Shown here piece by piece: positions 4,200 through 10,034 of a DNA stretch of 10,147 nt. A program made the translations under genes and the position numbers. The DNA lies in contig JAYUUO010000202.1 of assembly GCA_043754515.1 (NCBI GenBank), positions 1 to 10,147 of the forward strand, given 5' to 3'. The DNA comes from Armatimonadota bacterium. GTDB taxonomy: Bacteria > Armatimonadota > Armatimonadia > Armatimonadales > Armatimonadaceae. The notes below the pieces were generated by a model, which did no database searches, had not been told where the DNA came from, and saw nothing but the letters and a program-made list of their open reading frames with translations. Numbering within the stretch: position 1 is the first letter of the stretch; each line of letters opens with the position of its first letter.

Positions 4200-4832
4200 G
4201 CCGCTCTCTCAAATGGCATCCAGCAAGCCATCCCACGCCTCGACATCGAGTACGCGGTCGAGCAACTCCTCCAAAACCGTGAGCGAGCCAATGTCCCGCA
4301 CCCGTGCCTCTATCGCGGGCGGCGCGACGCCCAAGCGACGCATCCCCTGTCGGAGCAGAATACGCCGGGCTTCCCGCAACGCGCCTTCGACCTGCCCCTC
4401 GGTCCGGCCTTGCGTCAATCCCTCGGCTCGCCCCTCGGCTCGCCCCTCGCGCAAGATTTGTTGGTAAGCATTCGATTCCCGTATCTGATAAATACCCCGT
4501 CGCATCTGGTTTCGGAATGTCTTATCGTACCGCAAGCCCATAAAAATATTCGTCGCCGTCCACAGTTCGCCCTCCTCCGTCTCGCCTGTCGCCTCGGCCT
4601 CGATCCGCGCCCGCATCATCTTGATAACACGCCCCAACCCGGTCGGGCGCACGTTCGAGATCGGCGCGAACGGTAGCGTGGACAGTGCTCCTTCAAGTAG
4701 TTCTCCGACATCTAATTGCCATACGCGAACGACATTGTAGCGGAACGCGAAGTAAATGTTACCGGAAATGTCGGGCACGTCGAACGTGCCGGTGATGCGC
4801 GGATGATGCGGTCGGCGTAGAGGGTGATGTCC

Positions 4833-4855
4833 GACAAAACGCAGTTTTTGTCGTG
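4833..4855. repeat. 23-nt hairpin insertion GACAAAAC-GCA-GTTTTTGTC-gtg with GACA duplication
   Basis: GACA at 4833-4836 is repeated at 4856-4859. Removal restores the codons L-S-D-I-T. Confidence 0.7.
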
Positions 4856-4860
4856 GACAG

Positions 4861-4880
4861 GTTTGCAAGTGTGCAAACGC
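4861..4880. repeat. 20-nt hairpin insertion GTTTGCA-AGTG-TGCAAAC-gc
   Basis: Perfect 7-bp stem. Removal restores V-D-A-D-L-S. Confidence 0.8.
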
Positions 4881-4934
4881 GTCGGCGTCCACGAGCGACA
4901 CCTCGCCCGGCGGGAGCCCGAGGGACGCGACCCA

Positions 4935-4954
4935 GTCCACAAGTGTGCGGACGT
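4935..4954. repeat. 20-nt hairpin insertion GTCCACA-AGTG-TGCGGAC-gt with GTC duplication
   Basis: 14/20 identical to 4861-4880. Removal restores H-P-A-D-W-V. Confidence 0.8.
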
Positions 4955-5175
4955 GTCTGCGGGGTGCATCTCGATCAGGCGTTTGGTGACGGCATCGTAG
5001 GGTTTAGGGATACGACCGTAGTATGGCGCAGTCGGGAGTGATTCCAAAACAGGGCGTGGGCAGGTCTACCTTCAGTCGCGCCCTCACGTGGCGTACCGCG
5101 CGGAGTCACCGGGCGGGCTAATATGCCGCGCGTGTCGGGCGCGTTTATCATACCAGTGCGGCGTTACCGGTGGCC

Positions 5176-10004: not shown

Positions 10005-10034
10005 TAGGCAAGTGTGCCTAGGCGCACTTGCCTA
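10005..10034. repeat. 30-bp near-perfect palindrome TAGGCAAGTGTGCCTAGGCGCACTTGCCTA with two inverted GCAAGTG(T/C)GC cores
   Basis: One mismatched pair. The left half is itself the hairpin TAGGCA-AGTG-TGCCTA, with the same core as the 4861 and 4935 insertions. Confidence 0.8.

Follow-up and report, generated by a model that had tools for sequence, protein, structure and literature searches.

Three short hairpin inserts in a broken gene of a fragmented bacterial genome are real, recurrent and lineage-restricted micro-hairpins, which resemble the small dispersed repeats (SDRs) of cyanobacteria and here occur in a new phylum; the existence of the hairpin families to which they belong is near certain. 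The inserts lie in the window, the whole stretch of 10,147 nt that was analysed, which is contig C202 of genome G000 (5.13 Mb, 92.7% complete, fragmented assembly). Armatimonadota is the label carried by the named records with the same element and by the close protein homologues. The features of the locus are as follows.

4209..5011, minus strand: host pseudogene of the multicopy DUF4351/YdaD ('Rpn-like') family, with ATG changed to ATC at 5011-5009
4935..4954, minus strand: insert 1, family A, 20 nt, after the Asp codon of P-A-D-W; the boundary slides by 3 nt
4861..4880, minus strand: insert 2, family A, 20 nt, TT/AA stem variant, after the Asp codon of D-A-D-L
4831..4854, minus strand: insert 3, family B, between the S and the T of D-L-S-T, net gain 23 nt
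4796..4798, minus strand: junction of an internal deletion, 169 nt relative to C156 and 199 nt relative to C163 and C238
4209..4940, minus strand: surviving open frame of 243 aa, predicted, starting with a GTG inside insert 1

Homologues of the host gene are named 'predicted transposase YdaD' and 'Rpn family', and the putative Rpn assignment is taken from source names alone. Pfam gave no match to an Rpn or Transposase_31 model for 10 proteins at E ≤ 0.1, and neither did NCBIfam for two proteins at E ≤ 0.01. The DUF4351 tail scores 20.8-24.8 bits in the window frame and in paralogue C156 against a cut-off of 25, which is exceeded in 3/9 homologues. In Rpn systems, a DUF4351 tail is described as the separately made antitoxin (bioRxiv 2023.05.02.539157). 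The H-x-E-x-E motif conserved in the homologue alignment falls within the 169-199 nt deleted from the window copy, and the surviving frame consists of about 30 junk residues followed by an intact C-terminal part with the DUF4351-like tail.

G000 has 16 Rpn-like loci, four intact and 12 broken; hairpin inserts are present in five of the broken loci and in none of the intact ones, and none was detected in the other seven broken loci. An earlier note, made from the window alone, held that the three inserts had inactivated the gene. This is unproven: the frame is restored after insert 3, and the ATG and the 169-199 nt are lost as well. The inserts sum to 63 nt and the window copy has no stop across all three; in C238 the frame through the inserts runs into TGA. 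A 5' Rpn-like fragment on another contig (C174:27558-27629) has an intact ATG together with insert 1, so insert 1 likely predates the loss of the start codon and could have been the first lesion of the host gene. This fragment is truncated inside insert 1 by a transposase remnant.

All three stretches fold into hairpins, as the note had said. Specifically, insert 1 is composed of a 2-nt spacer and a 7-bp stem of the CC/GG variant closed by a CACT loop, and a single mismatch in the stem of the window's copy creates the GTG at 4940. The same variant is present in C238 and, cut short, in C174, and the corresponding site in a relative (G002:C543) holds a different A variant. Insert 2, identical in C238, has the CACT loop in common with insert 1, from which a compensatory pair change sets it apart; an 8-bp duplex joins its two flanks and ranks within the top 1.2% of the genome background. 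Insert 3 is laid out as 2 nt, a 20-nt stem-loop (4833-4852) and GG. Its hairpin recurs at the homologous site in C238 and in C229, which has 43% amino-acid identity to C156 and in which the element is 24 nt long and in frame, and a one-base variant of the hairpin is found in three RHS modules. Read against these copies, insert 3 is the 24-nt family B element minus one base, hence the net gain of 23 nt. Among 3000 random genomic windows, the hairpin energy of insert 2 was equalled in 24, that of insert 1 in 163 and that of insert 3 in 359, and by energy alone only insert 2 is unusual.

Empty counterparts of these sites exist. The inserts are absent from the intact paralogue C156, from paralogue C163 and from two paralogues in G002, leaving gaps of 20 and 43 nt, and they occur in none of the 120 listed homologues, in which private insertions of at least 6 aa were examined. 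Of the 58 homologues that match the D[AST]DL motif, S-T follows in 51 and S-D in none; the third site, when empty, therefore reads DLSTIT. The boundaries first proposed stand for inserts 1 and 2, and those of insert 3 move to 4831-4854, with DLSTIT in place of DLSDIT. Rfam at gathering scores has no match in the window or in C238.

A fragmented assembly and a multicopy gene family are the setting in which inserts could arise as assembly artefacts, an explanation that we find hardly credible. Logan contigs from two other studies (X6 and X5) contain the inserts. In X6, a window-type contig with one mismatch and a C238-type contig with 14 mismatches span 4832-4954, and in X5 a C238-type contig spans inserts 1 and 2. 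Furthermore, X8 matches 319 nt of the C238 copy with one mismatch, and X11 has a window-type contig. Because the inserts are seen on both window-type and C238-type flanks in independent studies, each filled allele with its own flanks, an artefact is excluded as far as contigs, rather than raw reads, allow. Among the contigs examined, none carries a clean empty allele of the window locus.

The inserts belong to families dispersed through the genome. Strict patterns find 25 copies of family A (20 nt) and 58 of family B (22-24 nt) in G000, against 0-2 in each of three block-shuffles; a looser first superfamily pattern was dropped as unspecific (201 matches against 88-115 shuffled). The cross-genome scan counts 55 B copies in G000, and 29 of the 58 strict-pattern copies represent one event nested in an amplified repeat. 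De-duplicated contexts number 13 for A (G000 plus relatives), 39 for B (23 in G000, 16 in G003) and 12 for C, a family of 30-nt elements. Family D, also 30 nt, has two copies, and both C and D occur in the Rpn-like paralogues C163 and C238. In an alignment of the genome to itself, 18/29 gap events of at least 14 nt contain such hairpins, seven of the 18 being one nested event. The stems of A and B covary by compensatory change: among 35 A copies, stem positions 3-4 are TC/GA in 20, TT/AA in 11, CC/GG in two and mismatched in two, and stem position 2 of B is paired in 29/34 distinct sequences. With identical or compensatory copies across the genome and in relatives, the idea of a dedicated recurrent process is supported; that of a single architecture is so in part, as all are hairpin inserts but of two families, of which B makes no duplication.

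Two further observations concern the window's ends. Positions 1-97 are part of an amplified palindromic repeat of about 30 copies with a nested family B copy; the contig breaks exactly at the nested B site, and repeat copies on C59 and C305 have no nested B. At 10005-10034 lies a near-perfect palindrome of 30 nt that contains the short core of family A twice, is not A by layout and is possibly an operator.

The range of the families is narrow. Family A is present in 6/32 genomes of the taxonomic family (G000 and 5/31 others); in the relatives, copies in either orientation occupy Rpn-like genes and genes interpreted as IS transposases. Outside the family, single hits in 3/287 genomes stay at the control level (two control hits). 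Family B has 32 copies in G003 and 0-3 elsewhere, and family C has 21 copies in G000, four in G002 and none in 30 other genomes. The G003 loci L140-L166 hold many near-identical B copies, several of them within another short intergenic repeat, which suggests recent activity in the G003 lineage. In viral contigs, the A pattern has four matches, one with a perfect stem, and the B and C patterns have none. A metagenome scan returned no match to the filled-site pattern and three to the C pattern, all in genes read as transposases. A scan of a genome collection gave 50 A matches, close to the chance estimate of about 69; the stem is perfect in 10/10 matches titled Armatimonadota and in 15/40 others, and the latter were dropped as likely chance.

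Within G000, family A is found in Rpn-like genes, three RHS modules, an IS fragment, larger palindromic repeats and 20-nt tandem arrays at the ends of C85 and C113, and the hosts of A and B together comprise IS, RHS, prophage, repeat and Rpn-like DNA. The flanks are multicopy for 19/25 A and 42/58 B copies, compared with a background of 6.3%, and the large contigs densest in elements are prophage. B and C copies nevertheless lie in frame within long open frames, among them those of a dprA-like gene (G003) and of the HerA and methylase genes of a prophage, and in-frame copies also occur in single-copy genes of G003. The simplest reading is a pile-up in dispensable DNA through selection.

Several individual loci have features of their own. 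On C143 and C138 (L167-L170), prophage genes (portal, major capsid, tail tube, tape measure and integrase) are linked to a full type I-E CRISPR-Cas set with an array, and both are dense in hairpin elements of several further families. A relative of the prophage (L177) lacks B and C copies and offers no usable empty sites. On C284 (L176), a serine recombinase sits beside a ThiF/Prok-E2/Prok-Ub cluster, with B and C copies present.

The ends of the elements differ between families. The A unit consists of a variable 2-nt spacer and an 18-nt hairpin ending in AC, and the target ends in AC at 6/13 distinct A sites (8/13 with a 1-nt slip; p=5e-5 against the genome frequency of AC). The duplication proposed for inserts 1 and 2 is therefore A's own AC terminus meeting a target AC, and the GACA at insert 3 is not a target duplication, because the unit there is a 24-nt B element that has lost one base. 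At de-duplicated sites, families B and C show neither target duplication nor flank pairing, with B boundaries resolved to 1 nt at best and flank-base biases that differ between G000 and G003 and are non-independent. Protein motifs point to net A lengths of 19 and 21 nt at other sites, and a 22-nt B copy gives the prophage HerA gene a net seven extra residues; we infer that junction length varies by about 1 nt, most empty sites being read from paralogues or protein motifs rather than from strain polymorphism. Pre-existing hairpins as targets were also considered: for A the signal is weak, with 5/13 targets in the top decile (p=0.02-0.05, a result exaggerated by long palindromes), and the idea was rejected for B (p=0.82) and C (p=0.82).

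The paralogues bear signs of copying that leaves the flanks behind. C238 has all three window inserts at the same sites, so the view of three separate events in the window gene needs amending, as one gene of the pair, at least, received its inserts by copying. Between the two, inserts differ at 1/63 positions and flanks at 25/142 (Fisher p=0.001), with 15/25 flank differences at third codon positions and differences 4 nt from both left junctions. In the insert region the window copy is no closer to C238 (11/54 and 13/57 differences) than to C163, which lacks inserts 1-3 (10/54 and 12/57). In addition, an insert of family D is common to C163 and C238 at a site that is empty in the window copy, so no single gene tree fits: inserts 1-3 group the window copy with C238, while D groups C163 with C238. 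The same disparity between inserts and flanks is found in RHS modules (0/44 vs 23/169 and 36/167) and in the C163/C238 pair (5/60 vs 80/348), although hairpin constraint could slow the divergence of inserts and thereby inflate the Fisher tests. Within G000, every site retains its own element variant. Likely, then, inserts were copied between paralogues without their flanks, and there are direct signs of such copying among genes 20-55% diverged; we infer transfer from filled to empty paralogues over very short tracts, and recurrent insertion at preferred sites.

Mixed arrangements are seen at other loci as well. A long RHS-repeat gene (C112:14875-14947) and two short modules (C158 and C300) share a same-site in-frame B and a frameshifting A. 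The Rpn-like loci G002:C110 and C522 (L033, L039) seem to be a mosaic of two subfamilies, and hold an A copy where C238 has an inverted A pair.

As to an enzyme, G000 contains a divergent single-copy HUH/Y1 gene (C71:14226-14498, L022). Genes of this type are present as one copy each in 14/32 family genomes and in 0/287 genomes outside the family at E≤1e-13, and all six family genomes with family A have one, as do eight genomes in which family A is absent, one of them being G001 from the same genus. The overlap is significant by genome (Fisher p=0.003) and not by genus (0.49), and amounts to one clade-level event. The H-x-H motif and the Tyr are retained in 10/10, and 7/10 lie downstream of a gene read as trpB. 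The C71 protein scores 26.9 bits with the NCBIfam IS200 model (cut-off 55) and E=0.2 against IS608 TnpA, and Atlas groups it with IS200-like Y1 at 0.93. It is possibly a domesticated transposase, and overlapping ranges make it a candidate mover.

No hairpins flank the C71-type genes, and no conserved 4-nt guide was found at the hairpin foot. The suggestion of a REP-like mini-element moved by a RAYT holds for the mini-element; in the 35 Y1 or RT loci examined, no RAYT is flanked by A-D hairpins, which are absent from all these loci save one unconfirmed pattern match in G010. Nor did the flanking hairpins predicted for a Y1, RT or Ku gene appear, and searches of G000, which is 92.7% complete, detected no IS110, Ku or RecT. 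The other two Y1 loci in G000 are broken or partial, and its two RTs have no elements nearby. One of these RTs, on C197 (L110), has a small gene upstream of it and a template-like stretch rich in AAC, a locus that we take to be a diversity-generating retroelement (DGR); the other, on C263 (L109), is retron-like, below cut-off and downstream of a gene with a BRCT-like tail. G000 also has MutS and, on C99, an AAA_24 gene, presumably Sak4-like, with no AAA_24 found in the element-bearing G002 or G003.

We propose that A and B are dispersed non-coding hairpin repeats that likely move as single-stranded hairpins, and that an HUH/Y1 enzyme probably cuts and pastes them in trans, the mover being perhaps the single-copy Y1 gene adjoining trpB on C71. 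Family A would prefer sites ending in AC, B and C would have no clear target or duplication, and junctions would vary by about 1 nt. A filled gene would then, likely by short-tract conversion, pass its element, together with hardly any of the DNA around it, to the corresponding site of a paralogue that is empty there. A folded 20-nt loop would escape mismatch repair while neighbouring point differences would get corrected. Selection would remove frameshifting copies elsewhere, so that they accumulate in dispensable DNA. Family membership, compensatory stems, empty sites, the lineage-restricted range and the presence of the same variant at the same site in diverged paralogues are observed; the mechanism as a whole is to us evenly poised between right and wrong. 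Its most specific form, in which a domesticated, single-copy, REP-less Y1 mobilises several tag-less families of 20-30 nt in one Armatimonadota lineage and filled sites home the hairpin alone into diverged paralogues, we consider unlikely.

The same mobile families might instead spread with no dedicated enzyme, by host recombination or repair with the help of phage annealing proteins, through micro-homology template switching or ssDNA/RNA-templated conversion. The ends of A agree with the target over 2-4 nt, and junctions that vary by 1 nt are more in keeping with repair than with a precise transposase; loop orientation flips from copy to copy (D in C163 vs C238, and the A arrays), several A copies are central in longer palindromes, tandem A arrays exist at C85 and C113, and the AAA_24 gene could supply an annealing function. 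This reading is nonetheless rather doubtful, since B and C lie at unrelated sites with neither flank homology nor pairing, AAA_24 and RecT were not found in the genomes named above, and the near-invariant unpaired ends (TC...KG) suggest recognition by a protein. That each hairpin originated locally, whether through snap-back repair synthesis or as the footprint of an excision, as the note had suggested, is extremely unlikely: outer stems partly match local sequence, but loops and inner stems are non-local and recur in unrelated genes and other genera, each insert having near-identical copies in unrelated genes, and Ku was not found in G000. The in-place origin is refuted for the hairpin cores, yet such synthesis may act on junctions, and fold-back extension may explain some long palindromes around A and the base lost at insert 3.

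Alternatively, a host system might deliberately scar mobile, foreign or toxic genes (IS, prophage, Rpn-like and RHS). The multicopy flanks and prophage-rich contigs fit this idea, as do the relatives' A copies in IS transposase and Rpn-like genes and an A copy that is the sole frameshift seen near its position in the long RHS gene on C112. However, 29 B copies are one nested event, B and C lie in frame in long open frames, purifying selection explains the bias, and 5/12 broken against 0/4 intact loci are too few to separate cause from accumulation, which leaves deliberate scarring quite improbable. The inserts might also be recoding signals for translational bypass, as the byps of yeast mitochondria, in genes that are still expressed. 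Insert 1 has matched in-frame GAC...GAC codons around its hairpin, and conserved inserts with third-position divergence of the flanks are also expected under recoding. Insert 2, however, has GAC/AAC, and insert 1 is the only one of the three with matched codons; A occurs in both orientations within genes, every insert-bearing Rpn-like locus has other lesions, and the codons after the putative take-off site are common (ACG rank 14 and GCG rank 1 of 61), making bypass very unlikely. Bypass needs a stop or hungry codon after take-off, and byps lie in essential genes (bioRxiv 2022.08.31.505936).

Compared by description only, the closest known kind is the cyanobacterial SDRs of Nostoc and relatives. 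These come in several families per genome with compensatory stems, and are not known to have a mover. The present elements are likewise dispersed multicopy units (A 20 nt, B 22-24 nt, C and D 30 nt), with empty and filled versions of the same site, tandem arrays (C85 and C113) and conserved stems with compensatory changes, as SDRs reportedly have. They differ in phylum and in target, which is AC or nearly none rather than HIP1. In the literature that cites Elhai et al. 2008 (Genome Res 18:1484), SDRs are about 20 nt, dispersed, in tandem arrays and possibly mobile (PMC2884548), SDR5 inserted precisely into HIP1, a short target (PMC4390886), and no SDR-like repeat is reported from HIP1-rich cyanobacteria outside Nostocaceae (PMC5861425). 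SDRs are also cited in PMC3116915; no mover for them is named in the citing passages of these four papers, and the passages of PMC3184786 on related elements do not mention SDRs.

The elements also resemble REP/REPIN-RAYT systems, 20-40-nt hairpins whose proposed mover, acting in trans, is a Y1 HUH enzyme, but they lack both the GTAG and the unpaired CGTC tag (the spacer of A is 2 nt and variable, and B-D start with TC), are mostly singlets, with one inverted A pair in C238, and no Y1 gene flanked by cognate hairpins was found in the 35 loci. For yeast mitochondrial GC clusters, empty alleles at var1 are converted. Unlike GC clusters and the byps derived from them, which are organellar and longer, the elements lie mostly in dispensable DNA and lack bypass signals. 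Unlike Rickettsia palindromic elements of about 150 bp, which they resemble in that some B and C copies are in frame, they are 20-30 nt and frequently frameshifting. The sources describe REP hairpins as sometimes intragenic and 20-40 nt long (PMC3733652), the REPIN mobile unit as a doublet (PMC3116915), GC clusters as short mobile hairpin elements of 30-80 bp in classes (PMC4464245) and Rickettsia palindromic elements as inserted in frame in protein genes (PMC10969869). Two other kinds were rejected: MITEs, which measure 70-300 bp and have terminal inverted repeats as well as a fixed target duplication (PMC3733652), as the elements have 20-30 nt and no fixed duplication, and non-autonomous IS200/IS605 elements, which have two subterminal hairpins each with a tetranucleotide guide (PMC6006769), as there is a single hairpin here and no conserved 4-nt guide. 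Searches of full texts, which covered few subscription papers and not the original SDR paper, turned up no description of such elements in Armatimonadota.

How repeats of less than 30 nt move is an open question, for which G000 provides no fewer than four families, empty sites alongside filled ones, and a specific enzyme as candidate. The elements provide a route by which accessory genes (IS, prophage, Rpn-like and RHS) acquire insertions of 7-10 residues or frameshifts. If they are moved by a domesticated transposase, as is possible, they would be among the smallest mobile DNAs known, and if a domesticated Y1 and homing both prove true, they would constitute a minimal homing element and the missing mover of SDR-class repeats would be named.
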